From the NCBI GenBank assembly GCA_038143065.1, contig JAYQLI010000037.1, positions 1-17,963 on the forward strand: 17,963 bases of DNA, given 5' to 3'. Below, piece after piece: positions 1 through 17,908 of the stretch. This stretch comes from Rhodospirillales bacterium (GTDB taxonomy: Bacteria > Pseudomonadota > Alphaproteobacteria > Bin95). The position numbers and the translations under genes were made by a program. The stretch's first letter is position 1. Every line of letters begins with the position of its first letter. The notes beneath the pieces were generated by a model. That model saw only the letters and a list, made by a program, of their open reading frames with translations, was not told the origin of the DNA and ran no database searches.

Positions 1-724
1 AGGTTCATCGCCGGATCGTTCGATATTTCGGCAACACGGGTGTTTGCTGGGTTCTCAAAGATTTCGTGCGCGGGCCCCTGTTGCAGCACCCTACCCTCGT
101 CAAGAATGATGATATCACCACAAGCTGCATAGCTTCCAGAGGATCGGTGCTGGAATAAATCAGGATAGAGTTTGACGATACTTTGTCAGAAAGATATTGC
201 GGAATTCCTCACGAAGCTGCTCACGAAGCTTGTAGTCAAAGGTTAACCAAAGGTTCGTCCAACAACAAGATGCCGGCCTGTTTCGCCAGCGACCGGGCAA
301 GTGCCACACGTTGCTGCTGGCCGCCGGACAGAGCCTGAATTTTTCTGCCTTCGAAGCCAGTGAGGCCGACGCTCTCCAGTGAGTCCATCACCCGCCCTGA
401 TCACGCCTTCATCCATCTTCCGCTGGCGCAGCGGAAGGCGACACGTTGTCGAACACGGTCAAATGCGGATAGTTGATGAACTGTTGATAGACCATCGCGA
501 TGTTGCGTTCCCAGACCGGCACTTGGCCCAGATCTGGTCATCTAACATCATGCGGCCGCCTTCCGGCGTGATCAGCCCAGCAATTGTCTTCAGCAGGTGG
601 TCTTGCCGGATAATGTCCTCCCAAGGATGGTGTAGAGTTCACCTTTCTGCATGCCGAATGACACATCATTCAGGTGAAATTCGTCTTCTGGCTTGTAGGT
701 CAGCCCCTTTGCGATTAAATCCAT
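1..724 (-). CDS. Carbohydrate/polyol ABC transporter ATP-binding subunit (MalK/GlpS-like); 3' end runs off the window, frameshifted as read
   Basis: Manual translation across frameshifts: MDLIAKGL..., Walker [10 protein letters not shown]-loop [13 protein letters not shown], signature [13 protein letters not shown], Walker [10 protein letters not shown] and [11 protein letters not shown]. The variant H-loop region [13 protein letters not shown] resembles GlpS-type subunits. Confidence 0.9.
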
Positions 725-725
725 C

Positions 726-1584
726 TTACTTCAGTGCTCCAGACAAGTTCCCTTTCGACAGGAAACGTTCAACAATAAAGGCCACCACGATCGGCGCGAC
801 CGAGATCAATGCTGAGGCCGAAAGGCTCCACCAAGGCGTAATCGAGGAATTCAGGGCCACGATCCGCACCGGCAACAGCTGCACCTCGGTAAAAGTGAGG
901 ATGAAAGCGAAGAAGAAGTCAGTCCATCCAAAGATCAGGCAGAACATGCCGGCGACGATCATGCCAGGGATGGAGTTCGGCAGTACCACCTTGAAAAATG
1001 CCTGATAGGGGTTGCACCCATCTATCAGCGCCGTCATCGTCTATTTCACGCGGCACCTTGTTGAAAAAATCCACCATGATCCAGACGGCTATCGGCATCA
1101 GCAGCACGATATAAACCATTATCAGACCTACGGGAGTCGAGCCCAAGATAGCCAAGCATTATGAAGAACGGAATCGACAGCACCCACCGGCGGCAATACG
1201 CTGCGAGATAAAGAAAGAAGGTTATGTCGTTGTTCTTGATGAAGCCCGCCTTGAATGTAAAACGCGACAGGGCATAAGCCGCAGAGTGCCTAGCAGAATG
1301 CTGATCAAGACTGGCTGAACAGGTTACAATGATGCTGTTGAAATAAGGCTCAACGATATCGACCCTCCACTCGCCGGAGTCCGCCACAATACGCGCCAGC
1401 CTTCCAGCGTCGGTTCGAACTGTAACCAAGGGATAGGTAGCTCCGCTGGTCACCGACTGAAAATCCTTAAATGACGTTGACAGTGCCCAGAGGGAAAGGC
1501 GCCACCACAAATATCGACCAAATGCAGATGAAGCCGTATTTTAGGAATGTGTATAGATTTAGCATGGTCAGTCTGTTTGATCAT
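726..1584 (-). CDS. Carbohydrate ABC transporter permease (MalG-like), frameshifted as read
   Basis: Joined ORF pieces: YFNSIIVT, AYALSRF, LMPIAVWIMVDFFNKVPREID, ALIDGC (EAA loop), FFKVVLP, FGWTDFFFAFILT, ERFLSKGNLSGALK. Confidence 0.88.
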
Positions 1585-2426
1585 GACCACCAGAACCTTG
1601 GCAATGATGGTCAGACTGACGATCATAATAACAAGATAGGTGAAGGATAGTGCTGCAGAATAACCCATTTGAAATTCAGCGCAGACCCTTTATGAAAATA
1701 TAGAAACTAGATGTTTCCGTTGCCGTTCCAGTCCTCCAGATGTTAGAACATAGATCGTATCCATTATCTTTGAGGCTTCGATTAATCTTATAATGATCGC
1801 CCCAATTGATATGGGTGCCATTAGCGAAATGTGACATAGATAAATTTGCAGATCGGCCCTGCCCCGTCGATGGAGGCAGCAAGGAACGCCTCCTCAGGCA
1901 GTGACAATAATCCGGCGAGAAGCAGCAGGAACATGAACGGTGTCCACTGCCAGGTCTCGACAATAACCACCGTGACTTTTGCCAAGGTCTCGTCACTCAG
2001 CCACAGCGGAGTGATCTCGAACAAGCTGAGGAAATCATTCACCGGACCTAGAAGTTCATGAAATACCGTTTTCCAGATTACCGTCATGATGACCGGCGTT
2101 GTCATCATCGGGATAAGAACAGCACCGGAAAAACCGCTTGAGGCCAGATCGCGCCATACCATCAGCGCTAACGAGAAGCCAAGCACATATTGCAGAAACA
2201 CGGTGGTCAGTGACAGAAAACTCCCAGCCGGAAAAAGATTCCCAAAAACGTTTGTCTTCGGTGAACAATCGGACGTAGTTTTCAAGACCAATAAAATCCA
2301 GACCGGGATAGAAACTGTCCCAGCTCGACAGACTGAGCCTGATGGTAAAAGAATTGGGAAGATCAGGATCCCAATCAGCACCAGAAGGCCCGGCAGCAAG
2401 AAGATGTGTTTATGCCTGAAGTTCAT
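1568..2426 (-). CDS. Carbohydrate ABC transporter permease (MalF-like), frameshifted; 3' end approximate
   Basis: FLLPGLLVLIG, LIPMMTTPV, ETWQWTPFMFLLLLAGLLSLPEEAFLAASIDGAG (EAA loop), MGYSAALS. Confidence 0.88.
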
Positions 2427-2471
2427 AGCGAACCCTCAAATTCGGGTGTTTGAAATACGAAAAATGAACAT

Positions 2472-2499
2472 GGGTGACCGGCGGAGGGTCCGGTCACCC
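2472..2499. repeat. Intergenic inverted repeat between the binding-protein and permease genes (probable mRNA stabiliser or attenuator)
   Basis: GGGTGACCGG-N8-CCGGTCACCC, a perfect 10-bp stem 16 nt after the inferred binding-protein stop. This position is common in ABC operons. Confidence 0.7.
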
Positions 2500-2515
2500 G
2501 TTAATCAGCAGTTAG

Positions 2516-4050
2516 TTAAAGGTTGTCCTCAAGCGCAACGCCAACAGCAAGCTTCACGGACATTGTCTTTACCAACACGATTCAGGATTTTCTCCCACTC
2601 AGCGGCTACCTCATCTAGAGCCTCCTGTGGGCTCAGCTGGCCAGCGAGCGCCTTTGAAGTGCCGGTTGCCACCGCACTGGTAAACTGGAAGACACCAGGA
2701 CAGCGTAGCGGGAATACGCGGTTGGTGCTCTTCTCTTCCATGTCCAGCAAAGTCTGAGTGTATTCCTTGGCGATTTGCTCATCCCAGCCCTGACGCTCCA
2801 CATAAATGCTCGGAACGAAGTCAGACTTCTTAAACAGGTTCACACCGAAGCGGCCAATGGCAATGTCCAGCCTGGTGGTTTGCGTCATTCGAGAAGAAGC
2901 ATAGATAGTCGAACGCCATGTCGTGATTTTTTGACTTCTTGGCAACAGCCGCGGCCCAGCCCCAGACGATGTAAGGTGCCTGATTGAACTCTTTGTCCCA
3001 GTCACCCTTTATGCGGTTCCAGACGCGGTCCGAACCTGGAAGCGGCGCAGCGCCAACTTTGTTCTTGATCGGGCTGTCATCTTCCATGGCAGCAACGAAT
3101 GCATCGTCCCAAGAGAAGCTGAACAGGGTCTGTCCACCACCAAATGAGTTGATCTCGTCACCGAGGCCAAAATTGATGCCGCCCGGCGGCACATATTTGG
3201 TCGCCTCGACCCAGTCGGTGAGCGCCTCTACAAATCCCGGACCGTTGATAGAGGTGTCATAGTCTCGAGGTCAAGAAGAGATCCGCCCGGTGTACGGGGA
3301 TTCTTCCGAATAGGCGACCGAACGGCTAAGAACGCTGCATACATCAGGTCGTCCTTTTTCATGACCTCGGCCGAGCCGTACTCAAGCTCGCCGTCACCAT
3401 CCCAGTCCCAGCCATTGAAAAAGGCAGCGATCTCGCCATACTCTTTCCAGGTGCGCGGAACCCGCAGTTCCTTGCCTGTCTCGGCCTTGTACTTTTTCTG
3501 ATACTCGGGATTGTCGATTACGTCCTTGCGATACTTCCAGATAATGACGGTCACCATCAATCGGGAACTGGATCATCTGGCCGTCCCAGGAAGCCACGTC
3601 GATATGCGACTTGGTGACGTCCTGCATCTGTCGCATGTTGACGTAGTAGTCTGGCACTGGCTCCAGATACATCATCCAATCGCGGATGAAGTTGGAGAAG
3701 CCAAAGACGATGTCATAAGGTGCCTGGCCAGCCTGAAAGGGGACCATCGCCTTAGAGTAGAGGTCACCCGCCGGTGTGTGGATCACGTTGACTTCCGCAC
3801 CAGTGAGCTTGGCAAACTGCTCAGCATGGAGCGCGGTCGGTTCGCCCATAACAGGTACGGCGTGCGTGTTGATGGTAAGCTTTGCGTCCGCTATGATCTT
3901 TCTTCGACATTGACTCATAAGAACACTCGCCGGGGATATCACCAGTGTTTTTAATATGCGGAAACTGGTCGCTCCACTTGTCGGCCTGCACGGCGGTGGC
4001 GATGATCGACGCCCCACCACGATGCCTGTTGATAACACACTAAATTTCAT
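2516..4050 (-). CDS. Carbohydrate ABC transporter substrate-binding protein, frameshifted as read
   Basis: GGAGG RBS before ATG 4050, signal-like N-terminus, QFPIDGDRHY, YRKDVI, VPRTWKEY, FSWDDAF, GAAPLPGS, ALAGQLSPQEALDEVAAEWEKI. Reframed C-terminus VGVALEDNL*. Confidence 0.88.
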
Positions 4051-4092
4051 AGTTTCCTCCATATAATTTCCTGTGGATGAAAGGGGTCTAGA

Positions 4093-5140
4093 TTAAGGTA
4101 CAAGAGCAGCACGACCCCTTACGTCGCCGCTATTCAGGTCGTGCAAAGCCTTATTGGCCTCGTCGAGCCGGTATTCCTGCATCGACAATGTCACGAGCCC
4201 TTTATTTGCGAGCTCCATGAGTTCATAGAGTTCGGCCCAAGTGCCAACTAGATTGCCGACGATAGTCTTCTCGGAAATGATCATGTCCGGCGAGAACCTG
4301 AATTTCTTCGCCATATCCAACGCGATGTAGTAGAAACCACTATTGGCGGTCATGTTCAGGCCCTTGGTGGTTGAACCATGCTCACCGACGAAGTCGATGA
4401 CAGCTTCGGCGCCCTTGCTGTGGGTCAGTTCCATAACCAAATTCATGCTCGTTGCCGTCGATAGCACCCCTTGTCAGCACCAAGTTCGATGGCGTGCTTC
4501 AGGCGTTGGCAGATTTTTCGACAACGATGATGTCAGCGTCGCCATCAGACACTGGATCGCAATGTGACCGAGGCCACCGGCGCCAATAATGACACAAGCT
4601 TGCCCCGGCGGCAGATGGCGTGTTGCTTTTTTTACAACCCGATAGGCGGTAAGGCCAGCATCAGAGAATGGTGCAACATCCTTCGGCGTTAGAACTGATG
4701 GCAGTTTGATCAAGTTGCGGACACTTGTTTTCAGTAGCTCTGCATACCCACCTTCCTTAATGTTAAGACCGGAAGCACCATCTTCTGCATGCATGTCGTG
4801 ACCACCTGACGACATGAAAGGCATGTGCCATCTGTTCCAGAGATCAGCGGATGCAATATGACAGGGTCACCCTGCACCAAAACCTGTAACGTCCTTGCCA
4901 ACCTCTTCAACCCAGCCAGCGTTTTCATGCCCCATAACAGGCAGAAGCTTGTTGTCTGGGTCCTGAATATGACGCCAAACTCCCTCAATAATATGAAGGT
5001 CGGTACGACATACCCCTGCTGCACCAATCTTAACGATTACATCGGATGATTTTTCAATCTTTGGGTCAGGCATTTCGGCACCCTTTGCCAAACGATGTTT
5101 TCATCTCTGTATCGTACTCATAAAATGCTTGAGCTTTCAT
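4093..5140 (-). CDS. Zn-dependent NAD(P) alcohol dehydrogenase (MDR family), frameshifted as read
   Basis: GVCRTDLH, GHENAGWVEEVG, FSDAGLTAY, GAGGLGHIAIQ (Rossmann), VIDFVG, GDVRGRAALVP. Confidence 0.9.
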
Positions 5141-5206
5141 TTACTTCACCTTTCAACACTTTCTGAGTTGAGGTTGGTGACTTCAACAGTCATCAATTAC
5201 AGTTTA

Positions 5207-5254
5207 TGTTCAAAAAGGAGCAAAAAGGCCGAAATAGTGTTCAGTTTTTGAGCA
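5207..5254. promoter_or_regulatory. Two putative activator-binding sites in the divergent adh/regulator intergenic region
   Basis: TGTTCAAAAAGGAGCA (5207-5222) and TGTTCAGTTTTTGAGCA (5238-5254) are similar imperfect palindromes starting 31 bp apart. Confidence 0.45.
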
Positions 5255-5357
5255 GTGTGCTATGTTGTCAGATAATATTTGCTAGGATAACGTTCTTATG
5301 CTTGGTGGAAATAAGGTCTTAATATGTCGATGCGAACAGACATTGTGAGTGAAGACT

Positions 5358-7005
5358 ATGCGTTCGATATTCAGAAATTCAGGATCTTCAGAAAAAGGAG
5401 GTATGTTTTCTGCAATCTCCGACAGCTGGTCGCGTTGCCGTGAATTTGGACTACGCGCATTGGGAAACCCACAGAGGCAGTACTTAGCGACGAAAAATTC
5501 CGGTTGATATTGAGCAGAATGAGGGCGTTCGACATATAGTATTGCCTGAGCTGGAACTTCTGTATAACCAGATTGCCGGGCACTAATTTTATGGTTGCCT
5601 ATGCTGATAGCGATGGTGTGGTTCTTGATTCCATTCAGGATGATGATTTTCAAGCTGGCGAAGGTGGGAAAGCTGTAGTTCCTGGCTCTGTCTGGAAGGA
5701 AAGCCATCGAGGAACGAACGCTCTGGGCCTTGCCATACACAGCCGCCGTCCCGCTATTGTCGCCGGGCGCGACCATTTTTCAGGCTTGGTGACCTGTGTC
5801 ATGCTTTGCCGTGCCAATTTTCAACCATGAGAGCGATATTGTCGGCGTTATCGATGCTACATCAAACGCCAAGGCTCGTAACGAACACACTAGCCTTGGT
5901 CAAGCTAGCCTCTCGGAACATTGAAAACCGCCTTTTCGCCGAACAATTCTGCGACTCTTCGATTCTAATGTTCCACGCTCGCCATGAATACCTTCCAACA
6001 ACAAGCGTCGCGATGATTGCGTTGATGATTACGGCTTCATTGAAGGCGCAAATTACCAACGCAAAGTCTATGTTGAAGACGGTTTGAACTTAAACAGCAA
6101 ACAACATTTCAGCGAGGTATTTCAGGTCAAGTTTTCAGAAAATTATCGACCAGGCGCGGTCAAACGAGATTGTTCGTATCCGTGATAGCTAGGTTCATTT
6201 GTCTTTATGAAGGCGCAGCCTCCTGTCACGCGCCGCTTTGTCCAAGATGAGAGTGATTTCATCATCCACAATGGCCAACACCTTCTGGTAAGTGAGTAAT
6301 GCCAGCCCCAATAACCCGACGAGTGGATATGCCTCAAAGACCGACACGCGCCTTCCAGGGATGAGGTTTTGAAAAAGGAGATTGAATCAGCGGTCCGCTC
6401 ATTATCAATCGGACTACCTGTGGTTATTGAGGGGCGAGCCTGGTACCGGTAAAACTGAACTGGCCCGTGAATTTTCAATAAAACTTTTGATAATGGGGAG
6501 CCTAGCAGTAATTGATTGCCATGTTCTAACCGCAGAAAACTTCAAAAGCTATCTCTTTGGTGATGAGGGTATGATCAGTTTTTTGATCCTGATTCTGTAA
6601 AGAATTCCAAGGGCAAGCTTGCTCTCGCGCGCGGTGGTTGCATATTATTCCGAAACGCGCAAACGCTTGATAAGGAGATTCAGCAGCGGATTTCAGACGC
6701 AATGACCTTTGAAGAAGAGCGGCGGCGTGATGGCTTAACGCCAGTCATCACCGGCTGGTTTTTTGTCGGACCCCTATCATGGGTAGAGCACACCGATAAT
6801 GATATCATACCGGCATTCTCCAAAAGCATCAACGGAAAGACAGTAACGGCGCCACCACTATCGCATCGATCAGATTTTCAAAAGGTGGCTTCAGCTATCA
6901 TCGCTGATGTCTCGCAGAGCACTCCTTTCACCTGTTGCGCCGAGATCCTACAGGAGGGAGAACTGGCCAGGCAATTTGAAGCAAGATAGTTACATTCAGA
7001 TTTAG
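5358..7005 (+). pseudogene. AcoR-like GAF + AAA+ transcriptional activator, truncated before the C-terminal HTH
   Basis: DSWSRCREFGL, ADSDGVVL, GSVWKESHRGTNALGLA, ALVKLASRNIENRLF (AcoR GAF region), GEPGTGKTELA (Walker A), GKLALARGG. NWPGNLKQ (6961-6984) is followed by unrelated residues and TAG at 7003-7005. No Fis-type HTH follows. Confidence 0.8.
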
Positions 7006-7034: not shown

Positions 7035-7057
7035 TTTGACACAGATTTGACACAGTA
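7035..7057 (+). repeat. Tandem arm-type integrase site, left copy
   Basis: TTTGACACAGATTTGACACAGTA (11-bp period), ending 13 bp before the integrase ATG; identical to 12450-12472. Confidence 0.85.
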
Positions 7058-7070
7058 AAAGGTCAAATCA

Positions 7071-8054
7071 ATGGGTTGTGTGCGTAAAAGAGGTAAGTCT
7101 TGGAATGCTCAAGTGAGGATTGCTGGATGGAGAAGTTTTACCAAATCATTCAAGTCAAAGTCAGATGCTGTTTTTTGGATTGCAGGAAACAGAACATCAA
7201 CTCAAGACAGTTACCTCTTCCAAGAGTGAATGTTGGTGAGATCACCTTAAAAGAGAACTTCTACAGACTTATCCCAAAGAAGTGTCGTTCAATTTGAAAG
7301 GTTCAGAAATAGAAACATACAAACTGAAATTATTCAAAACATCCGATTGCAGAGAACAAACTTGTTAATCTTACTCAACGCAAACATTTTGAATATCTTC
7401 GTGATGAGAGGTTAAAAGTTAAAGTCTGGAACTGTTCATGCAGACTTGATGATGTTTAGAAGAGTATTCAAAACTGCAATACACAAATGGGGATATGGAC
7501 TACCCAAAAACCCTGTTGAATATCTTCAACTACCATCACCTCACAAGTCTCGTAAACGCAGATTGATGCCTAGTGAAAAAGAACACCTCCTTACCGCTGC
7601 ATCATCACAACGCAATATCTACATCGCCTATATCATTGAGTTTGCGATTGAAACAGGTATGCGCCGTTCTGAGATACTGAAACTCCGATGGTGTGATGTT
7701 GATTTGGAGAATGGGTTTGCATCTCTTTATGACACCAAGAATGGTGAAGATAGACGAGTGCCTCTCACTAGAAGGTGCATAGAAGTTCTTCAGACGGTGC
7801 CTCATACTAATGAACAATTGTTCCCCATCTCTGCCACCTGTTTGCGTCTTGCATGGAACAGAGCACGCAATAAAGCAGGCATCACTGATTTACGGTTTTA
7901 TGACTTGAGACATGAAGCAGTTTCACGGATCTTTGAGATGGGAATGTCAGTTCCAGAAGTGGCACTAATATCTGGACATAAGGATGTAAGACAGTTGTTC
8001 AGATACACCCACTTGAACCCATCAAATGTGTTCAAGAAGTATGCGGCGTTCTAG
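7071..8054 (+). CDS. int: Tyrosine recombinase/integrase (Rci/HP1-like); N-terminal third frameshifted as read
   Basis: N-terminal arm-binding-like MGCVRKRGKSWNAQVRIAGW; catalytic motifs ETGMRRSE, DTKNG, FYDLRHEA, ISGHKDVRQLFRYTH. Confidence 0.92.
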
Positions 8055-8317
8055 AACAGTCCAGCGACATAGTGATAAATGCCATACACGATGACACAAA
8101 TCACCACGAGTATGATGAAGAGTGTTTGCAGGAAGTCATGCACTAGCGCTTTGACTAGTTGTTTGGTTTTGACTGAACCAAGGGCGAGATAACAAAGGAC
8201 TAATGACACTGGGAAAGAAAACCAAAAGACAGTTGAGACAATCCAGAACTTTATGAACCCCATATCCTTAAATGGATTTTCATCGTCATTTTTTATTATC
8301 TGGTTTTCGGTATTCAT
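8051..8317 (-). CDS. Small membrane protein with two hydrophobic segments
   Basis: Intact 88-aa ORF with FWIVSTVFWFSFPVSLVLCYLALG and LFIILVVICVIVYGIYHYV. Its stop overlaps the integrase stop. Confidence 0.7.
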   Translation of the reverse strand: MNTENQIIKNDDENPFKDMGFIKFWIVSTVFWFSFPVSLVLCYLALGSVKTKQLVKALVHDFLQTLFIILVVICVIVYGIYHYVAGLF

Positions 8318-8375
8318 AGAGGTGTCTCTATTGCATTTATAGATTAGAAAATCGTTATCAGTTTTGAGGGGTGTA

Positions 8376-8579
8376 TCATGATGCAGTCATAGACTGCAAA
8401 GTGTTCCTCTGTTTCCTCTGTGCAGTACTCTCTTGCATCTTCCTGTCACGAACCATCTTCAGTCCTTCGTTCACCATTGAGTTGATACTAGTAGTGGCAG
8501 CGTCCAACTCTTTAACTCTTTGGCAGTCCATCCAAAGGTTGTAGTCAATTCTTGCGGCGTAATCGTGAGTTATCTTCAT
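8376..8579 (-). CDS. Small protein, possible ribbon-helix-helix DNA-binding protein
   Basis: 67 aa. Strand-like HDYAARID, helix YNLWMDCQRVKEL and second helix SINSMVNEGLKMV fit the RHH pattern by eye. Confidence 0.5.
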   Translation of the reverse strand: MKITHDYAARIDYNLWMDCQRVKELDAATTSINSMVNEGLKMVRDRKMQESTAQRKQRNTLQSMTAS

Positions 8580-8718
8580 TCTTAATTTTCCTTTTCGGGA
8601 TTTTCCGTTGGTTTAGAAGATTCAGCAGGCGCCCAAAGAGTGGATTTGGTTCAAACCGTTTCTTACCTAACTGTTTACAGATTTTATCCCATGACAGTTC
8701 TGGTTTATCGTCTATCAC
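8545..8718 (-). CDS. Small basic hypothetical protein (57 aa, below the ORF track cutoff)
   Basis: GTG start overlaps the upstream stop (GTGA coupling). MIDDKPELSWDKICKQLGKKRFEPNPLFGRLLNLLNQRKIPKRKIKNEDNSRLRRKN*; overlaps the next ORF. Confidence 0.5.
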   Translation of the reverse strand: MIDDKPELSWDKICKQLGKKRFEPNPLFGRLLNLLNQRKIPKRKIKNEDNSRLRRKN

Positions 8719-8915
8719 TTTATCCCCCGCTGATTCCTATCCATCTGAGCGTTCTGTTCGCCCAGCAGCAATGTCTGTTGAGAAATCTCACCAAACATCT
8801 TCACCAGCACCTTTCGTGCGGCAATCTCATCTTTTGATTTGATGTATTCGTTACCGAGCGTGATGAGTTTCTTGCCCGATGCGTCTATGCGTTGTTTGAG
8901 TTGTTGTATGTCCAT
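8715..8915 (-). CDS. Small helical hypothetical protein, first gene of a three-gene operon
   Basis: Intact 66-aa ORF preceded by purine-rich AAAGGAACAGAGGT. Confidence 0.65.
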   Translation of the reverse strand: MDIQQLKQRIDASGKKLITLGNEYIKSKDEIAARKVLVKMFGEISQQTLLLGEQNAQMDRNQRGIK

Positions 8916-8943
8916 ACCTCTGTTCCTTTCAGAGGTATTTATA
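8914..8943 (-). promoter_or_regulatory. T4-type late promoter consensus TATAAATA overlapping a hairpin that sequesters the RBS/start
   Basis: Minus strand reads TATAAATACCTCTGAAAGGAACAGAGGTATG. The stem ATACCTCTG/CAGAGGTAT is perfect (9 bp) and includes GAGG and the AT of ATG. Confidence 0.55.
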
Positions 8944-9070
8944 TGAACTTTTAAAAATGACTTTGGAAAAGTCTAAAAATCAAATTTCTATGACACACAA
9001 ACACAAATTTTCCGTTATGTTGTATTTCGATCCCCTGCAATTTATCCACAATTTTGGTGTCATATTAAAA

Positions 9071-10101
9071 ATGAATAAGACGCAAGAGTCATCTTTGAGA
9101 GTGATAAGTCTGTTTTCTGGATGTGGTGGCATGGATTTAGGGTTTCAGAAGGAGGGTTATAAAATAATCTTTGCTAATGATATCGAACCTTCTGTTAAAG
9201 ACACCTATCAACATAACTTAACCCGAAATTAAAATTGCAGATATTCGAACTTTTAATAAGGCGGATATTCCTGAGGCAGAAATAGTAATCGCCGGCATAC
9301 CGTGCCAACCGTTTTCAAACGCAGGAAATCGGCAGTCGACAAAAGACACAGATGGCAACCTTTTTTTCAAGTTCTGGAGGTGAGGAACATCACATCCGAA
9401 AAGACCAAAGGTGGAAGTGTTTGAAAATTCAGAGGTTTTTTGTCATCTAAAGACGAAAACGGGATATTGTTGACTGACCGCTTTAGCGCTGAAATTGAGA
9501 CAACTTGGTTACTCTACGTTTTTCAAACTTCTAAATGCATCAGATTTTGGCGTTCCCTCTAACCGATATCGTGTGTTTATTGTTTGTGTCTTGACTGAAA
9601 AGAAAAAGATTTTGTTTTCCAGAACCTAATGAAAAAATCAGACCTAAAACTGTGGGGGCAATAATTAACAAAAAATTACCACACAACGAAGTTCAAGAAG
9701 TTTGGAATTTGCCTCCATCTTCAAGGCGTATAATTGGTTTCATTCCTGAGGGCGGTTCTTGGAAAAACATACCAGATGAAAAATTAAGTGAACGCTTCTT
9801 GAAGATTCGGCAAAATCCAAAGAAATATCGTGCGCCAAATTTTTATCGGCGTTTTGCCCGTAATGAAATAATGGGAACAGTAACCGCACGAACATCCTCA
9901 CCTGAAAATAGTGGGATTTTGCATCCGTTGGAAGATCGTAGGTATTCTGTGAGAGAAGTCGCACGATTTCAAAGTTTTCCCGACAGTTTTAAATTTCTGG
10001 GAAACAATGTAAGCGCAAAGTATAAAATGATTGGCAATGCCGTCCCACCATCTTTAGCGCAGGTAATAGCAAAGGCAATTAAAGATCAATTTTTCTGTTG
10101 A
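9071..10101 (+). CDS. DNA cytosine-5 methyltransferase, frameshifted as read
   Basis: Motif I SLFSGCGGMDLGF, ANDIE, motif IV AGIPCQPFSNAG, motif VI FEN, motif VIII FGVPSNRYRVFIV, motif IX RRYSVREVARFQSFPD, motif X YKMIGNAVPP. Confidence 0.93.
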
Positions 10102-10661
10102 AGTATCCACTGTTTTGCAGTTCAATTATTTCAACATCATCGTCAAATCTTCCCATCCCAGTGTTGCAACTGTCACAAACATACCCCCTAGGTTCACCTG
10201 TTTTATGGTTGTGCTCTAGAACAATTCTGCTCATGCCCACAATGCTTGTTTTTTCACAAATAGGTCATTGAAATAACTCATATTTCTCAGGTTTTCTTTT
10301 TTCCCATGTCTTTTTCAGAGCATCAAACAAGAGCCTTTCCATCTTTTTCTAATCTGCAACCTACAAGATGGTCTTTTTTAATCTTGTTATCTTTTTTCGC
10401 CGATTATTTTCAAAATTCACATCGGTTGCAAGCAAGCGGAAACACCGATCACAAATTTTATTTTGATAATCATCACCACATTTTGTTACGTCAAAAAATT
10501 CAACTTCGTCACGATTGAACTCATATGCTTTGTTTACTCGTGGAAATTGTATCAAGATTGTGTTGTGGCGATCTGTTGTAACAAGACCAATCTCACTCTG
10601 CTTTAGAGTTATGTCACCTAACTGTTTTGTCTCGCACTTTAATCTCATCATACCGTGGCAT
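10086..10661 (-). CDS. Hpy99I-family type II restriction endonuclease (beta-beta-alpha-Me, Zn-binding), frameshifted as read
   Basis: KICDRCFRLL, FENNR, RPSC, PICEKTSIVG, IVLEHNHKTGEPRGYVCDSCNTGMGRFDDD. Convergent with and overlapping the MTase 3' end; GGAG RBS before ATG 10661. Confidence 0.8.
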
Positions 10662-11238
10662 ATCAACTGCTCCAAGAACATTGCAATCCAACGTTAGCAA
10701 TTAATATTTTTAATTGGTAGAAATTTACTTTCCTAACGAGAACTACACCATCTTAAACAATGCCAACCTTAACCTATCTGTTGAAATTTAATGTCCTGTT
10801 TTTGGGCAAACTCTTTTTCGCACTCCTTTTTTTAGGGAGTATAATGAATAGAGCACGCCAAGTTTTTGGCAACGGTTGGATGTAGCAACAGAGTATCTCA
10901 ACGGAAATTACATTGCTGCACTTTATCTGTTGCTAATGATCGTAGCGATAATCAGCAAGATCTGAACTCGTTTGGAAAACTTCAAAAACTGTTCAAAGTC
11001 TGGATGCCCTTTTCAACAAACCCATGATGACTTGCTTCATCTTGGGTGGAAATTGGGAGCGCCAACCAAGGGTTATCTTTTTCCAATTTACTGTTTGTTG
11101 CAAGAGCAGGTTTTAATGGATTTCTTGTTTTCACTGAAAAATTGAGTTTTAGAATTCTCAACCCCCTCTGACTTCATTTTGATATAACCCATACCAGAAC
11201 AGTCAAAGCGCACTGGTCGGTGATTGCTCGAGGTTTAA

Positions 11239-11769
11239 TCACCACAAATCTGGTTTAGATAGTGCAGAGACACACTCAAACTGGATTGGTTGTTCTGGAA
11301 CAGGAGTGTCATCCAACATCATACCTGTCCAACCAAATGGATATTGCAATGTGTATGGCGGCAGGAATGAGTGTCCAATCTCTTCTTTGAACCCAAACCG
11401 TCCATAGTAGGCAGGGATCTCCATAAACCATTAGAACACCAACACCATCTTGGGTGAGCATATCTATTCCAGATTGATGAGGTTTGAACCAACACCTTGT
11501 TTCTGATGTTCTGGAGACACAGCAAGTGGAGCAAGAATATATCCAAGATACTAGAGTCAGATTTCAAGAAAGATTGGACTGTAGGACACATAACCAATTA
11601 CTTGATTATCAACTTCAGCAACTAATGACTTGATTGAGGGACTGGTGGTTTCTTGATGGAGTTCTTGAACAAGGTTCATGATGACTTTGTTCTCTTCATC
11701 AGAAAACGCAGTTTCAATAACCTTTAGGATTGAGTCCAAATCTGTTTCTTGAGCAAGTCTAATATCCAT
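11239..11769 (-). CDS. GNAT N-acetyltransferase (YhbS-like), frameshifted as read
   Basis: MDIRLAQETDLDSI, SLVAEVDNQVIGYVSYSPI, LAPLAVSPEHQKQGVGSNLI (acetyl-CoA motif), PAYYGRFGF. Confidence 0.88.
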
Positions 11770-11797
11770 AATCAATCTATAACTTAATTCTGAATCC

Positions 11798-11835
11798 TCA
11801 TCCACCTGTGGTGGATGAATGCACCGAAGGTGCAT
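11798..11835. repeat. Two abutting perfect hairpins with 3-nt loops
   Basis: TCATCCACC-TGT-GGTGGATGA (11798-11818) immediately followed by ATGCACC-GAA-GGTGCAT (11819-11835). Confidence 0.75.
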
Positions 11836-11908
11836 GGTCCAGATTGAAATGAAATCAAGATAAGGACTAGCGAACAAAGTAATCCTTATTCATCACTTAC
11901 ATAGTAAT

Positions 11909-12325
11909 TTATAAGGATTGTTGGACATTTTGGACAGTCCAACCAAAATAATTTACCTCATGTTCAGTGAAGAGTTTCTTCAACTCATCTTGGTTAGATT
12001 TCTTCTCTTCAATTTTGGATATTGATTTTGGTGCAACAAACTGAACCTGTCTCAATCCAACACCTTCATCCTTGCAAAGAGTTGTTTTGGATAGAACTGG
12101 TGTCTGAAATCATCTTCTTCATTCACCTCATTGCATCTCTCAATCATCTTCCTCAGCGTCCAGTGTGGGAATGGTTTACCTTGTTGATTGGTTAAACCTC
12201 TGCGATTGAGTGCATCAGCAAGTTCTTCAAAATCAGAAATTGGTTCAGCATCTGGATTGTCAAAATGTTCAGTGAGGATAGACACCATCTCTCTGAATAT
12301 CTTTTTATACTTGTTTCTTGTTCAT
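11909..12325 (-). CDS. Small putative DNA-binding protein next to the right att region; probably frameshifted, ends approximate
   Basis: FEELADALNRRGLTNQQGKPFPHWTLRKM resembles the 'IAxxLNxxGxxTxxGxxW' winged-helix motif of recombinase-associated domains. An alternative frame continues VGLRQVQFVAPK...QQSL* to 11909. Confidence 0.55.
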
Positions 12326-12449
12326 TTCTTCATCTCGTTAAAAACAGATAAGAAAGACAGCGGCAGCGTATTCTTTCAAACCTTCTTCAATTCTATTTAT
12401 GTGTCCATTGATTTTGATATGAAGAATGTGGGTTTTACGCACTCAGAAC

Positions 12450-12472
12450 TTTGACACAGATTTGACACAGTA
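12450..12472 (+). repeat. Tandem arm-type integrase site, right copy
   Basis: TTTGACACAGATTTGACACAGTA, identical to 7035-7057, 65 bp before the tRNA fragment. Confidence 0.85.
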
Positions 12473-12537
12473 GACCATTCAGATATACTGAATCAGAGAG
12501 AAAAAATCTGTGAAAAAATAAGCGTTTTCAATATATT

Positions 12538-12599
12538 GCTGGATAGAGCACAGACTACGAATCTGGGGGTCGGGAGTTCGAATCTTCCCGAGCGCGCCA
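12538..12599 (+). tRNA. 5'-truncated tRNA-Arg(ACG), att-site copy
   Basis: GCTGGATAGAGCA-CAGA-CTACGAA-TCTGG-GGGTC-GGGAGTTCGAATCTTCC-CGAGCGCGCCA: anticodon ACG at 12557-12559, T-arm and CCA present. The 5' acceptor strand and 5' D-stem strand are replaced by TTTTCAATATATT. Confidence 0.88.
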
Positions 12600-12671
12600 T
12601 TTTCCATTCTGACACCCGCAGAAAATAACGCGTTTCAGCCTGTTCGCTTCATCGCGGGCGTACAAATGGTC
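12583..12671 (+). repeat. Left arm of ~90-bp inverted repeat (tRNA 3' end + 59 bp + part of arm site)
   Basis: 12583-12658 matches the reverse complement of 14346-14421 at 75/76 positions. ACAAATGGTC (12662-12671) matches 14332-14341 in reverse. Confidence 0.93.
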
Positions 12672-12678
12672 GTACATT

Positions 12679-13822
12679 ATGACGAAGGTATCTGCGCCTT
12701 ACCTATACCGGAAACGCGGTATTTACTATCTTCAGAAACGCATCCCAAAGCCTCTGATCCCAAAATATGGGCGATCAATTCTCCAGCGGTCGCTTCGAAC
12801 AACTAATCGGGCTGACGCGGTTAGGCTGTCCAGTTCCATCGTCTCTTCACTTGAGCGTGAATGGCAAGCTTTACTTTTCGATATACCAAACACGTCTGCT
12901 TCCGCTTTTTATCACCTGACATCAGGGCAGCAGCACGAGCCATTGCTAACAGAAGCAATGCAGCTTTATCTGAAAGATGGCGGGAAGGATCTGGATTTCA
13001 GATTATGCCAAGCCACAAACACGGTCATAAAAAGTGTTGTTAGTTTGGTTGGCGATAAAACGTTATCAGCATACTCACGAAACGATGCGCTCCGGTTTAG
13101 AGACACATTGGTCGCCAGAGGCGTCTCTCAAGCAACAGTCAAACGTCATTTTGCACGCCTCAGAGCTATATGGAATTTTAGCGCTCGGGAACACGGCATC
13201 ATGACAACCAACCCATTTGCGAATATGAACCTTGGAGGCGGTAAGGTGCCGAGGAAGCGGCGCCCAATTCCAACTGAGAGCATCTTCAACATACAAACAC
13301 TATGTAGCGAGATCGACGATGACATGCGCTGGATTGTTGCCACTATATCAGATAGTGGAATGCGGCTCGCAGAGGTAATAGGCCTTCAAAAGGATGATCT
13401 GAGCCTTGATGTTGAGATACCGTTTTTGCGGCTCTCAGAGCATCCGTGGAGGCGCTAAAAACATCAACCAGCAAGCGTGATGTACCCCTAGTTGGCGCGG
13501 CTCTGTGGGGTTTAAAAAGGGCTTTAGATGAGGCAGAAGGCCCACTGCTTTTTCCGCGCTATTGCATCTTAGAAAACAACAAGGCCAATTATGCCAGCGG
13601 TGCGTTAAACAAGTGGCTAAAAGCATATGTGCCTGATGGTTGTGTTGTGCATTCGTTCAGACATAGTTTGCGAGACAGGTTGCGAGCAGCAGAATGTCCA
13701 AGTGACATAATCGATCAAATTGGGGCTGGCAGACAGCTGGTATTGGGCAGCGTTATGGCAAAGGGTATGAGTTAGATATACTCCATAATTGGCTTAAAAA
13801 AGGCTGTAAGCAATCATACTAA
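12679..13822 (+). CDS. int: Tyrosine recombinase/integrase with DUF6538-like N-terminus; two frameshifts as read (about 13455 and 13725)
   Basis: YLYRKRGIYYLQKRIPK...SLRT, DSGMRLAEVIGL, LKTSTSKRDVPL, HSFRHSLRDRLR, reframed WQTAGIGQRYGKGY. The R-K-HxxR-W-Y set is complete. Confidence 0.92.
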
Positions 13823-13945
13823 TTTTGCTTGACGCCCTGCCCTACAAAAAAAATTATGCAATCGCTTTGTTGAGTGCTTTCAACTTTGTCACACTTCTGC
13901 AACACTACCATCGCATATTAAAATAGAAAACAACAGGAGTTAGTA

Positions 13946-14330
13946 ATGGGCTTTGATGTTGGGAATACAACTTTTGGGTTCACAATGCGCGTACCCGATG
14001 CGGACGTAGCAAGCTGTAGACGATCTTATTGCTTCGCACGCTGCTTGATGGGAGAAACGCACTCGTTAACAGGTGAAGACGGTAAGCTTCACACACTCGA
14101 ATATTATGTATCTAAAGCTGCTGAGCTAAACGATATGATGGACCCCTTCAAAAGGTACAACCGGGAACGTCGTGTACACGGTTAGCGAAGTTCATAAAGC
14201 CCTCAACGAGCATTTTGGAAAGCATGTTGAGCTGGGACAAAGTTGGGACCGGATAGGCGAATTCTTCGGTTTGTTCGAAAAATACAGCCCACTGGTGACT
14301 ATGGCCGGAAGGGTTACAGCTAAACTCTAA
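13946..14330 (+). CDS. Hypothetical protein, possibly dimeric alpha-beta barrel fold; frameshifted as read
   Basis: AGGAG RBS. Reframed it reads MGFDVGNTTFGFTMRVP...DLIASHAA...ETHSL...YYVSKAAELNDMMDP(S)KGTTGNVVYTVSEVH...KHVELGQSWDRIGEF...GRVTAKL*. Confidence 0.6.
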
Positions 14331-14331
14331 A

Positions 14332-14421
14332 GACCATTTGTGCTTCCCGCGATGAAGCGAACAGGCCGAAACGCGTTATTTTCTGCGGGTGTCAGAATGG
14401 AAAATGGCGCGCTCGGGAAGA
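14332..14421 (-). repeat. Right arm of the inverted repeat, containing the last 17 nt of tRNA-Arg on the minus strand
   Basis: TGGCGCGCTCGGGAAGA (14405-14421) is the reverse complement of TCTTCCCGAGCGCGCCA. Confidence 0.93.
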
Positions 14422-14487
14422 GAATTTGCCACCGCGTTGGCCTGAAACCTTAATGATTCTGCCACCTACTGACTGCTCGGCAAGTCG

Positions 14488-14510
14488 AATGTACGACCAT
14501 TTGTACGACC
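14488..14510 (-). repeat. Tandem arm-type site of integrase 2, outside the right inverted repeat
   Basis: AATGTACGACCATTTGTACG (14488-14507) is the exact reverse complement of 12659-12678; 12-bp period. Confidence 0.85.
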
Positions 14511-14802
14511 GCAGCGCCCTGATCCGCCGATACCCCCCCATTGAAATCACGGGCGGGAGCGCTTTGTATTACGCATGATCGCATCAGGAGCAGCCAAGCT
14601 TTGACGCAATATAATAGGGCCGCCCATAACCTGATATATATCATATATATCACTTATTATATGAATGGATGGCCTAGAATAGGTCGGTGTCAGCGAGTGT
14701 GTAATTGCCGTTTGGGACGCGGGTTGTCGCTGAGATTTGTGATGTCAAAAAGCAGCTTACCGTATAAGCTAAAGCCGAAAATGATTAATGAAAGGATTGG
14801 AG

Positions 14803-15603
14803 ATGGAGTTCAATACAGCTTTCGGATTTGTTCCTATTGATAAGCGCAGAACCATCTCAAAGCCTCGCAAATCCGGTATTACAATGGTGTCGGACTATCA
14901 ATTGGGGTTGGCGTCTCTGTCTGACCTTATTGAAGTCGCTGGCCATTATATTGACTTATTCAAAATTGCCACTGGCACATCCCGGCTTTTTGAGAAAACT
15001 CATTTGCAGGCCAAAATTGAAATGCTACGAGCTAACGACATTAGGCCCTTTCTTGGAGGTCAATTTCAAGAATATGTCCTTCACACAATGGGCGTTGATG
15101 CAATGCCGCGACATTTCAGTGAAGCGCAGGCTCTCGGGTTCGATATCATAGAAATTTCTGACAATATGGTTCAACTTGGCCAAGGTTTGAGGCAACAACT
15201 CTTTGATATGGTTCGCGATCAGGGCATGACCCCTGTGGGAGAAATCGGCGACAAGCGGGAAAGCTCCTCGATATTGTCAATCATCGACGAGGTGAATGAG
15301 GTTTTGGATCTGGGCGCAGAGTTTGCCCTAATCGAAGCAGCTGAGTTGATGCACGGAGGTGTGCCAAATGAGGAGTTGATTTTAGCTATTCGGCAAAATG
15401 TTGATATTACCCGCTGTATCTTTGAACTCGCAACGCCTCGAGTTGGGAGTACGACGGTTCAAATTTATGCAGGAAAAAAATTCCTTGTAAAGACGTTTGG
15501 CCCAGATGTGAATTTGGGCAACGTGACACCCGATGTGATAATAGAGACTGAAACAACCCGTCTCGGCTTGGGATCTGCTGGGCCTCTCGACTTCCTAAAA
15601 TAA
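14803..15603 (+). CDS. comA: Phosphosulfolactate synthase (ComA family)
   Basis: KPRKSGITMVSD, AGHYIDLFKIATGTSRL, LGFDIIEISDN, PVGEIG, ALIEAAE, IFELA, FGPDVNLGNV, ETTRLGLG. Intact ORF; an alternative start is at 14788. Confidence 0.85.
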   Translation: MEFNTAFGFVPIDKRRTISKPRKSGITMVSDYQLGLASLSDLIEVAGHYIDLFKIATGTSRLFEKTHLQAKIEMLRANDIRPFLGGQFQEYVLHTMGVDAMPRHFSEAQALGFDIIEISDNMVQLGQGLRQQLFDMVRDQGMTPVGEIGDKRESSSILSIIDEVNEVLDLGAEFALIEAAELMHGGVPNEELILAIRQNVDITRCIFELATPRVGSTTVQIYAGKKFLVKTFGPDVNLGNVTPDVIIETETTRLGLGSAGPLDFLK

Positions 15604-15665
15604 AAATAACATTTAGCACTAGTAGAAAAGTAGCCAAACACTGACTTGGCACTTCAGCTTTACCC

Positions 15666-15989
15666 TCAAGTTTGCGTTTCATTGCGCTTGGCAAGCATGC
15701 TCTTGTTTACCGCCCTAAGGACGTCCAAATAGCTGCCCTCAGCGCCAGTAACCACTTCCACCTTCGCCTTCCCCCAACCGCGGTCTACGAGCGCCTGAGC
15801 AGCGGTTCCCCGTACACGTTCATCCTTGCCGTCACGCATCAACTCAACCAGCGTGTCGATAGCCTCAAGCGTATAGGAGCGAGCTAACTCAGCGACACGG
15901 TGTTCGTCCTTTGGACGGCCTCCGGGATTGCCTGATTGACCGGGTGCGAATTGGCCTGATCTAAGCCGAGCTTTTTGAATGGTTTGCAT
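15666..15989 (-). CDS. DUF5681-type protein (GQSGNPxGRP), terminase-small-subunit-like
   Basis: GQFAPGQSGNPGGRPK...LARSYTLEAIDTLVELM...RVRGTAAQALVDRGWGKA, a motif set typical of phage-associated DUF5681 proteins. Confidence 0.7.
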   Translation of the reverse strand: MQTIQKARLRSGQFAPGQSGNPGGRPKDEHRVAELARSYTLEAIDTLVELMRDGKDERVRGTAAQALVDRGWGKAKVEVVTGAEGSYLDVLRAVNKSMLAKRNETQT

Positions 15990-16075
15990 AGGGGGATTAT
16001 AGCATTGGTGAATGATGGTGGTAAGGCCACCTAATGAGTCACACAATGACCCCATACCAGCCATAAACCTGTCAT

Positions 16076-16153
16076 AATACGGGTTCAGTGTTAACTGTGA
16101 ACCTAACGTATTTCCTCCCTAAACTCGGCCAGCCTTTGCGCTGGCCTTATTTT
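16076..16153 (+). ncRNA. Candidate small RNA: hairpin, anti-SD tract and intrinsic terminator
   Basis: AATACG-GGTTCA...TGAACC-taa-CGTATT stem, then TCCTCCCT, then GGCCAGC-CTTTGC-GCTGGCC-TTATTTT. Confidence 0.35.
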
Positions 16154-16160
16154 GTGGCAG
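16127..16160 (+). terminator. Intrinsic terminator, direct-repeat copy 1
   Basis: GGCCAGCCTTTGCGCTGGCCTTATTTTGTGGCAG, a 7-bp GC stem plus T tract; identical at 16540-16573. Confidence 0.8.
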
Positions 16161-16189
16161 AATTTTTAGGAACAAAAAAGGAGAGCAAA

Positions 16190-16539: not shown

Positions 16540-16573
16540 GGCCAGCCTTTGCGCTGGCCTTATTTTGTGGCAG
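16540..16573 (+). terminator. Intrinsic terminator, direct-repeat copy 2
   Basis: 34/34 identical to 16127-16160; similarity continues a further 17 bp with 4 mismatches. Confidence 0.8.
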
Positions 16574-16583
16574 GGTTTTTACG

Positions 16584-16748
16584 ATCAAAACTGACAATCT
16601 AGAAAAGCAGGTTAAGTTGTTGAATGTTCTAGTCGATGGGTGCAGGAAGCATCCCGCGTACAGAGCTATCCGCCCCGCTACAGGCCGTTGCAAGCCTTGT
16701 GTTGATATGTGGCAGGCAAGACAAGAGCTGAAAAAGCTAAACAAATGA
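16584..16748 (+). CDS. Small Cys/His protein, possible Zn-binding; start uncertain
   Basis: Open frame IKTDNLEKQVKLLNVLVDGCRKHPAYRAIRPATGRCKPCVDMWQARQELKKLNK* (CxxH...CxxC). The stop overlaps the next ATG (ATGA). No in-frame ATG at the 5' end. Confidence 0.5.
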   Translation: MKTDNLEKQVKLLNVLVDGCRKHPAYRAIRPATGRCKPCVDMWQARQELKKLNK

Positions 16749-17461: not shown

Positions 17462-17766
17462 TGGAAACCAACCGCTTCAAGCAGAAACTATATGATGAAT
17501 TTGACGCCAACTGTTACAAAGTGTTTGGCGTGAGCGGCACGCGGGTACACGAAGTTCTTAGTGAACGTGGCGATGACTTGTATGAATTGTTTGAGCAGGC
17601 CTTTGACCACGGCGGCGCGGCATTTATGCGCCTCAAAATGTTGATGTCAATCGCGACACTTGAGACGGTATATTATGAAACCAAGATTGGCAAAGAGTTG
17701 TCTGAAGAAGAAATGGATGAAACCACGTGTTCCCATTGGGTGCGTCATGCATTCGTTCCGACATAG
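17461..17766 (+). CDS. Acidic hypothetical protein whose 3' end runs into an integrase remnant
   Basis: TGATG coupling with the upstream gene. The last ~18 codons overlap the integrase remnant out of frame. Confidence 0.55.
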   Translation: METNRFKQKLYDEFDANCYKVFGVSGTRVHEVLSERGDDLYELFEQAFDHGGAAFMRLKMLMSIATLETVYYETKIGKELSEEEMDETTCSHWVRHAFVPT

Positions 17767-17908
17767 CCTAAGAGACAGGCTCCGGGCTGTCGAATGTCCT
17801 GCTGACATTATCGATGCCATAGGTGGGTGGACGACCAAGGGGGTTGGGCACCAATATGGTAAAGGTCACAGCTTGCAGGTCATGAACGGATGGATGAAGA
17901 AGCTATGA
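17711..17908 (+). pseudogene. C-terminal remnant of an integrase paralogous to 12679-13822
   Basis: KWMKPRVPIGCVMHSFRHSLRDRLRAVECPADIIDAIGGW...QYGKG aligns with KWLKAYVPDGCVVHSFRHSLRDRLRAAECPSDIIDQIG. No N-terminal part is present upstream. Confidence 0.88.

Follow-up and report, generated by a model that had tools for sequence, protein, structure and literature searches.

Genomic islands that integrate at tRNA genes have been assumed to be bounded by direct repeats only. What, then, is an integrase gene that lies between two inverted copies of a tRNA 3′ end? This question is raised by a contig of a Rhodospirillales bacterium (JAYQLI010000037.1), one of 52 contigs of assembly GCA_038143065.1; the window analyzed here is the entire 17,963-nt contig, and its own genome is referred to as G000. 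A preliminary description of the sequence proposed that the integrase gene (int) and a small cargo form a self-inverting module between inverted attachment (att) sites. Our analysis points to another structure: the window probably contains the left end of an integrated tRNA-targeting element with a second, inverted and intact attP directly 3′ of int, and a widespread alphaproteobacterial integrase family keeps such an extra perfect inverted attP behind int. This structure combined with a use of the internal attP is likely the best explanation overall, if held slightly less firmly, and any single functional role of the internal copy is put forward tentatively.

Inverted attachment sites around the integrase gene

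A repeat search of the window revealed inverted arms at positions 12583–12658 and 14346–14421, which are 76 nt long and 99% complementary with one mismatch, as the preliminary description had reported. The longest exact inverted match in the region 11500–15500 was 54 nt, compared with a maximum of 16 nt and a mean of 12.3 nt in 100 mononucleotide shuffles. The sole mismatch is an A at approximately 12636 in the left copy; the right copy has G at this position, as do all 17 site instances of the related metagenome loci L011 and L014–L028 (see below). An outer inverted pair (25 nt, 96%) was found at 12654–12678 and 14488–14512, confirming the tandem arm site that had been noticed outside the repeat in the same inverted sense, and the 10-bp extension of the match into an arm repeat is visible in the sequence at 14336–14345. 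Between the arms lie only the integrase gene (12679 to ~13830) and approximately 500 nt with small open reading frame (ORF) pieces, in agreement with the earlier account of this interval.

The left arm starts with a 17-nt core, the tRNA 3′ end (TCTTCCCGAGCGCGCCA; 12583–12599, plus strand), which is the constant block where all flank types meet. It is followed by the int-proximal P′ arm ("B"; 59 nt, 12600–12658, plus strand), which is conserved in L011, L013–L028 and the right copy of the window, and by tandem arm-type repeats (CGTACA twice; 12654–12678, plus strand) that abut the int ATG and have their inverted twin at 14488–14512. The right site lies on the minus strand and consists of a partial, diverged arm-type repeat of 10 nt (14336–14345), the inverted P′ arm copy (14346–14404), the inverted core (14405–14421) and a P arm (14422–14687); the last comprises a 66-nt spacer, the tandem arm-type repeats at 14488–14512 and a conserved extension to 14687, and this block adjoins the core in L022, L023, L024 and L026. 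A search allowing up to three mismatches detected exactly two copies of the 17-nt core in the window, mutually inverted. When mapped from the whole-element layout described below, positions 12583–12678 represent an attL-type half (core, P′ arm and arm repeats) and positions 14336–14687 (minus strand) an internal attP (P arm, core, P′ arm and partial arm repeat).

Independent copies of the sites in metagenomes

A search with an exact 26-nt arm pattern yielded 15 metagenome contigs, and 19 site instances were compared (two in the window, one in L011, two in L023 and 14 in other loci). In all 19, the shared block opens with the identical 17 nt of the tRNA 3′ end and runs into the 59-nt arm. The left flank is a full tRNA-Arg in six loci (L011, L014, L018, L020, L021 and L023), a truncated tRNA with the upstream flank of the window in three (the window, L017 and L025), a P arm with tandem arm repeats in five (the right site of the window, L022, L023, L024 and L026), a decayed tRNA-like sequence termed O1 in L015, L016, L028 and L019, and one other sequence in L027. 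On the right, tandem arm repeats followed by the int ATG were found at nine sites, and half an arm repeat leading into the int 3′ end in reverse complement at three (L022, L023 and L024); the right site of the window runs into cargo, and several other right flanks occur among the 19 instances. The P arm block stands beside a different right flank in L015, an attR-type site. All four junction types of the Arg family exist at the 17-nt core (P arm to P′ arm, P arm to flank X, O1 to P′ arm, and O1 to X), and these comparative data support the proposal that the right site is attP-like, with the order arm, core and (partial) arm. The arm pattern gave no match in IMG/VR.

Locus L023, on a 120-kb contig, presents the arrangement in its tightest form: a full tRNA-Arg is followed by an intact int and an inverted copy of 83 nt with 100% identity, which begins within the int stop codon; no cargo intervenes. 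In place of 35 nt in L023, the window contains 578 nt (13768–14345) with a different int tail and small ORFs. Separately, positions 1–166 of L018 contain a full tRNA-Arg, core, P′ arm and arm repeats running straight into the P-arm spacer without int, a layout that suggests a formerly canonical element with the segment between its direct arm repeats deleted.

The recurrence of the sites bears on the explanation, already raised as an alternative in the preliminary description, that the structure is a one-off rearrangement scar or an assembly chimera confined to the window contig. The quality of the contig speaks for it: this is an error-rich long-read contig with many indels, and ORFs of at least 200 aa cover only 25% of the bases in the small contigs of the assembly, compared with 75% in the 2.86-Mb contig. 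However, the same layout is present in JGI short-read contigs, in GTDB genomes of six other families and in a finished isolate genome. This recurrence, both in independent assemblies and among members of the integrase family, shows that the structure is not a chimera and not a scar private to the contig; both were rejected, and we regard this explanation as extremely improbable.

Integrity of the integrase

The gene at 12679–13830 (plus strand) encodes a tyrosine integrase with DUF6538, Int_N and Phage_integrase domains, as assigned from Pfam and the four runs described here, and is split in the window into three frames by 1-nt deletions at 13455 and 13721. Logan contigs (k = 31) from four runs of four metagenome studies were aligned over positions 11900–15200 of the window. 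All four runs carry an additional T after 13455 and an additional G after 13721, exactly the points at which the integrase frame is broken, and further indels at 13796, 13926, 14011 and 14143 were likewise found in four of four. When all six indels were applied, the integrase frame was open for 406 codons. Since four independent studies carry both missing bases, the breaks are sequencing errors; int is intact in the population, and the idea that it would have to be repaired before use, implied by the assay suggested earlier, is unsupported.

The N-terminal piece in the window matched DUF6538 (PF20172) with 55.1 bits (cut-off 27) and Int_N with 27.6, and the 109-aa C-terminal piece had no match in Pfam. 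The intact ortholog in L023 (380 aa) contains DUF6538, PF00589 and Int_N and shares 92% protein identity with the window over residues 1–283. DUF6538 and PF00589 were present in all nine aligned relatives, and R229, K261, H325, R328, W351 and Y360 (L023 numbering; motifs R, K, H-x-x-R, W and Y) were invariant in all nine integrases. The matching catalytic motifs are readable in the window frames, which are broken only at the two indels corrected in all four runs. The closest solved structures by sequence were three "Int protein" chains (examples 6EN0, 6EMY and 6EMZ; E ~5e-7), which we take to be the Tn1549 integrase. The integrases of L011 and L020, which are 87% identical and lie beside a full tRNA-Arg, have in-frame stops in short-read assemblies and are apparently real pseudogenes, unlike that of the window.

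Elsewhere in the window, genes for an ABC transporter, a solute-binding protein, a zinc-type dehydrogenase and a sigma-54-type regulator (positions 1–7000) are all frame-split, and indels relative to short-read contigs occur every ~100–300 nt in the aligned part. The contig is unpolished long-read sequence, and apparent pseudogenes in it are therefore unreliable.

The bracket as a trait of the integrase family

A protein search identified metagenome-assembled genomes resembling Puniceispirillum as the relatives of the window, and the host is a Puniceispirillum-like (SAR116) marine alphaproteobacterium. DNA similarity searches against plasmids and 40 relatives returned tRNA matches only. G000 contains 22 matches to the DUF6538-type integrase family, many of them fragments and mostly on small contigs. 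An inverted repeat of 59–149 nt brackets int in seven of 20 match regions, and on contigs C5 and C46 the arm terminates on its outer side in the 3′ end of a truncated tRNA-Phe. In G001 and G002, which belong to two further species of the genus, the layout was found at tRNA-SeC, with arms of 86 nt at 100% in one and 100 nt at 95% in the other; the arm sequences differ between the two genomes, and each right arm matches its own left arm. In a third species of the genus, the right arm is decayed.

In an even sample of 401 alphaproteobacterial genomes, a close homologue was present in six other genomes from six families, and six of the seven loci in these genomes were bracketed by arms of 68–187 nt with 98.5–100% identity, adjoining tRNA-Thr, -Gly, -Leu, -Phe or -Arg(CCG). 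In loci with an abutting tRNA, the arms take in 14, 14, 14, 14, 17, 17, 21 and 25 nt of its 3′ end. The bracket was detected in 16 of the 20 full-length int loci. The insert between int and the right arm ranges from 0 to 1.3 kb and is unrelated among lineages (a cold-shock protein, a zinc-ribbon ORF or a 441-aa protein), and the inserts of L068, L069 and L071 are unrelated to the small cargo of the window. Where the fit is tight, the int start codon marks the end of the arm sequence, which resumes 5–40 nt past the stop. An integrase-profile search of IMG/VR gave 10 loci, the three strongest of which were analyzed for the bracket: L097 has an 84-nt bracket at 100%, and the integrases of L096 and L098 are cut at the N-terminus. 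The family with the extra attP was found in SAR116, in roseobacters and in four further families of the sample searched.

Two observations concern other integrase matches in G000. The contigs carrying them (C1, C3, C5, C12, C13, C14, C22, C27, C34, C35, C36, C38, C41 and C46) include small ones that look like separately assembled flexible islands. At C36:6931–8700, an N-terminally truncated integrase paralogue lies between inverted decayed tRNA-like blocks with cores at the inner ends and arms outside the cores, the opposite geometry to the window.

The whole element in relatives

The complete arrangement was found in the finished megaplasmid of Ruegeria sp. TM1040 (NC_008043.1, L094), in which the family member is annotated "DUF6538 domain-containing protein". 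In locus coordinates, tRNA-Phe lies at 19853–19927, an 85-nt perfect inverted repeat around int at 19911–19995 and 21169–21253, and a 1148-nt perfect inverted repeat at 21237–22384 and 31533–32680. The longer repeat shares the inverted 17-nt core with the 85-nt pair, and each of its arms has a BRO gene. The order is therefore tRNA-Phe core, 68-nt arm, int, inverted arm with inverted core, 1131-nt inverted arm, 9.1-kb cargo, 1131-nt arm and, at the far end, a core direct to the tRNA core. The cargo encodes a type I restriction-modification system, a SprT-like protein and a hypothetical protein, and of the arm-type repeats (CGTAGACC), one lies beside the int ATG and two lie in the P arm. The corresponding site is empty in Tritonibacter mobilis A3R06, where tRNA-Phe is joined directly to the distal flank (17-nt overlap). 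Contig C5 of G000 contains three cores in forward, reverse and forward orientation and an inverted repeat of 953 nt, into which the 3′ end of a primase-like gene extends; in both TM1040 and C5, the element is thus bounded on either side by the tRNA 3′ end in direct repeat. A recombinase gene with inverted target sites is present in both the window and TM1040. Because the whole element in TM1040 is accompanied by an empty site in a relative, the right-hand site is read as an intact internal attP. In G259, G139 and G399, the search for distal P-arm copies found only contig-end repeats or arrays too complex to resolve. As a separate feature, the cargo arc of TM1040 contains a further inverted repeat of 147 nt (97%; 22398–22544 and 29677–29823) around the type I restriction-modification genes.

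These arrangements suggest an element that would be mobilized by a tyrosine integrase of the lambda type (arm plus core) whose N-terminal domain is DUF6538. In the relatives, its full layout begins with the tRNA core and P′ arm, continues through int (in some cases with a small cargo) to the inverted P′ arm, inverted core and inverted P arm, and closes, after the main cargo, with a P arm, a direct core and the chromosomal flank; in the window, the distal direct core would lie beyond the contig end. The integrase is predicted to act at the 17-nt core and to bind the CGTACA arm repeats, and the whole element would integrate and excise through the two direct cores in the Campbell way. With an inverted attP behind int, inverted repeats flank both the int gene and the cargo. 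Since this extra attP lies inside the element bounded by direct cores, the excised circle would be divided into a small int arc and a cargo arc by two long inverted repeats, both carrying an attP core.

Several results weigh against this interpretation. The window contains no full tRNA, and no third (distal direct) core was found in it at up to three mismatches, the contig stopping at 17963; the whole-element reading consequently rests on the relatives. The short-read contigs X1 and X9 reach only 17 nt across the window's own cargo-to-inverted-arm junction, less than the 31-nt bridging threshold. In G000, 13 of the 20 int-match regions, mostly fragments, lack the bracket, as do four of the 20 full-length loci, namely L011 and L020, with only ~300 nt of flank, L032, with a decayed arm, and L076, with no bracket in 15 kb. 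In addition, no circular form was observed, and none of the 10 IMG/VR loci was a small circle.

Orientation of int and inversion between the cores

The orientation of int relative to the tRNA was uniform. The two were co-directional in 17 of 17 loci with a called tRNA, some of which are close relatives, and the same int orientation was read by eye in all five truncated-tRNA cases. Flipped junctions were absent from all nine int-proximal sites (P arm on the left) and all five P-arm sites (int 5′ end on the right).

These counts are most relevant to an active self-inverting switch, in which recombination between the tRNA-side core and the inverted core would flip the int arc and thereby toggle the expression of int or cargo, or assemble a complete attP beside int. 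As with hin, identical inverted cores enclose the recombinase gene, and the arrangement of L015 differs from that of L021 and the window as a single core-by-core inversion would produce. Moreover, because the arms stay 98.5–100% identical in many lineages, the copies must exchange sequence in some way. The geometry that the preliminary description laid out for an inversion between the cores is also supported, since such an inversion is topologically possible and would change no junction sequence. Of the two orientations that it proposed to look for in related genomes, only one was found: none of the 14 informative sites was flipped, and int was co-directional with the tRNA throughout. Alternative joints were not found in the four runs over 11900–15200, although k = 31 contigs cannot phase the ~53–54-nt exact repeat and rare flipping could have escaped notice; record 22 of run X5 diverges from the window past 14341, and record 20 of the same run has 12 differing letters ahead of 12583. 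A consensus promoter scan gave five sites against 4.3 expected by chance, none of them on the minus strand, and no terminators. Active self-inversion is thus unproven, unsupported by these data and disfavored by the fixed orientation, and we consider the switch unlikely.

In the integrated state, the attL and internal attP would form a poorly reactive pair, leaving the internal copy inert towards its neighbors, and for this reason int would never be seen flipped. The attL × attP reaction is established as unproductive for lambda Int and would presumably be so for this arm-dependent integrase too.

A few loci differ in the order of modules. In L021, the tRNA and int are followed in direct order by the P arm, core, P′ arm and an asparaginase block. 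The same modules are present in L015, L016 and L028, with the two halves on opposite strands and joined to new partners (O1 to P′ arm and P arm to X), and an O1-to-X site was found in C36 of G000. Judging from these sequences, the L015 arrangement might have arisen by recombination of an internal attP with an inverted secondary attB-like site. This inversion is only a lead, because the attB-like partner comes from another genome and has ~80% identity.

Possible uses of the internal attP

We infer that the internal attP is kept because it is used. The most likely use would be as a recombination partner for the other, oppositely oriented copy once the element is excised, or for attB-like secondary sites, and recombination between the copies would keep the internal copy identical to its partner. 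Candidate advantages, drawn from geometry, are 2-micron-like isomerization or amplification, a folded single-strand attP, capture at secondary sites and pairing of mRNA ends. That the internal inverted attP is the central functional part of a novel type of element, either by single-strand pairing into a duplex attP or by 2-micron-like flipping of the excised circle for amplification from one replication start, seems doubtful.

A folded single-strand attP deserves separate consideration. Here, the element would enter a cell or move in single-stranded form, and its inverted copies would anneal into a stem that makes up the duplex attP, with int and cargo looped out; a single strand exchange with the tRNA would be followed by replication, as in the folded single-strand att integration of CTX phage and integron cassettes. 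Such folding predicts exactly the observed order of cores, arms and loops, it uniquely predicts a single fixed orientation, and mismatch correction in the stem would keep the arms identical. However, the elements examined showed neither a rolling-circle Rep nor a relaxase, C5 having a primase-like gene; the loops would span 1.2–24 kb, and direct attL and attR already permit ordinary double-strand excision. We assign this mechanism a low probability.

The tight cases, in which the arms flank the coding sequence closely, could alternatively reflect a role in RNA: the 3′ inverted arm would pair with the 5′ leader of the int mRNA and control its stability or translation, comparable to the RNA-level control of lambda by sib. 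The arms do end at the int start codon and resume shortly past its stop. However, they are perfectly identical in DNA rather than tolerant of G-U pairing, which indicates a DNA-level process, and the mismatch in the window would give A·C. The inverted repeat also extends ~1 kb into the P arm in TM1040 and C5, far past what an mRNA would need, and this role is accordingly rated very unlikely.

Comparison with known systems

The layout shares features with several recombination systems. In the yeast 2-micron plasmid, the FLP gene lies in one of two unique arcs between long perfect inverted repeats bearing FRT; the element described here likewise has a tyrosine recombinase gene in one arc and inverted repeats that each contain a recombinase target. 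Unlike 2-micron, it integrates into a tRNA gene via one copy and has a replication module only in some elements, and the likeness rests on layout. In the Hin/hix, Fim and shufflon switches, the recombinase gene is enclosed by or adjoins inverted target sites, whereas only one orientation was found here and the sites are full attP or attL sites with arms, derived from a tRNA end. As with CTX attP(+) and integron attC, two inverted copies could form one duplex site, and the integrated product would keep both copies by one end; the stems of 85–1200 bp, the kilobase loops and an element-encoded recombinase with arm sites set the present element apart.

Tripartite integrative and conjugative elements of Mesorhizobium reportedly undergo integrase-driven inversions between inverted att/tRNA sites. 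In the accessible portion of a report on pTN3 of Thermococcales (PMC5495485), inverted integrase sites lead to inversions rather than excision, and the L015 arrangement fits such an event. The inversions reported for pTN3 and the tripartite elements are large chromosomal events that involve distinct elements or tRNA genes; here, each element carries a conserved inverted attP of its own.

Similar in general organization are tycheposons and other tRNA islands with lambda-type tyrosine integrases. The sections consulted of the tycheposon preprint (bioRxiv 10.1101/2020.12.28.424599) describe direct partial tRNAs, tandem arrays, integrase remnants and inversion by homologous recombination. Both kinds of element have int beside a tRNA 3′ end and direct partial-tRNA repeats at the ends, and in both, tandem accretion leaves truncated tRNAs and integrase fragments, with metabolic or defense cargo in oceanic bacteria. 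An inverted attP behind int is not described in those sections, and an intact inverted attP directly behind int, with int and cargo each inside inverted repeats, distinguishes the window-type element from tycheposons as there described. The layout was not described in the literature searched on integrase inverted repeats, attP, tRNA, inversion and TM1040, an absence that does not mean unpublished; the accessible part of PMC6109161 was unrelated to it. The term "DUF6538" was not found in the full-text literature searched, which left most subscription journals outside its scope. The elements apparently represent an undescribed, conserved variant of tRNA-integrating elements.

The layout affects the calling of island boundaries and explains assembly breaks beside these integrases. 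It predicts integrase-driven inversions with secondary sites, and its presence in the cultured strain TM1040 makes the role of the second copy directly testable.

Truncated tRNA and neighboring features

The tRNA-Arg that the preliminary description placed at the left end of the module turned out to be a fragment. ARAGORN detected no tRNA in the window, and Rfam gave no match at the gathering or E-value threshold. Alignment to the full tRNA-Arg of L011, L023 and G000 (C35:2520986–2521062) revealed a 5′-truncated tRNA-Arg(ACG) of ~60 nt at 12540–12599 (plus strand), corresponding to tRNA positions ~15–77. It spans the D loop to CCA without the 5′ acceptor and D-stem strand and is not a functional gene. 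L017 and L025 share the same truncation and the same upstream flank. The fragment differs from G000's own tRNA-Arg(ACG) on C35, which, like its tRNA-SeC, is unoccupied. The window copy, standing behind a truncated tRNA, is therefore displaced from the tRNA gene in a tandem array.

A second integrative island occupies 7037–12472, between 23-bp direct repeats (7037–7059 and 12450–12472), and has 36–42% G+C. Its genes include a small tyrosine recombinase (from 7072), a C5 cytosine methyltransferase (~8900–10101), a GNAT gene and a helix-turn-helix gene, and a shorter island lies between the same 23-bp repeats in L017. The truncated tRNA and the direct repeats around the second island mark this as a tandem, partly decayed island region.

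The small cargo in the int arc (13831–14335, plus strand) contains the ORF pieces 13946–14185 and 14172–14330 and has no family match in Pfam. The cargo arc starts at 14788–16064 with genes for a ComA-family phosphosulfolactate synthase (plus strand) and a DUF5681 protein (minus strand), both assigned with Pfam, and the same genes adjoin the P arm in L015 and L016. A sharp boundary to variable cargo lies at 14687/14688: ComA comes next in the window, L015 and L016, is absent in L024 and is replaced by other sequence in L022, and runs X9 and X14 have loose ends at 14687. Further downstream, a 51-nt direct repeat (92%; 16127–16177 and 16540–16590) flanks a GYD-domain gene, and the C-terminal fragment of a paralogous integrase of the same family lies at 17645–17908 (plus strand), with 66% identity to residues 304–376 of the L023 integrase.

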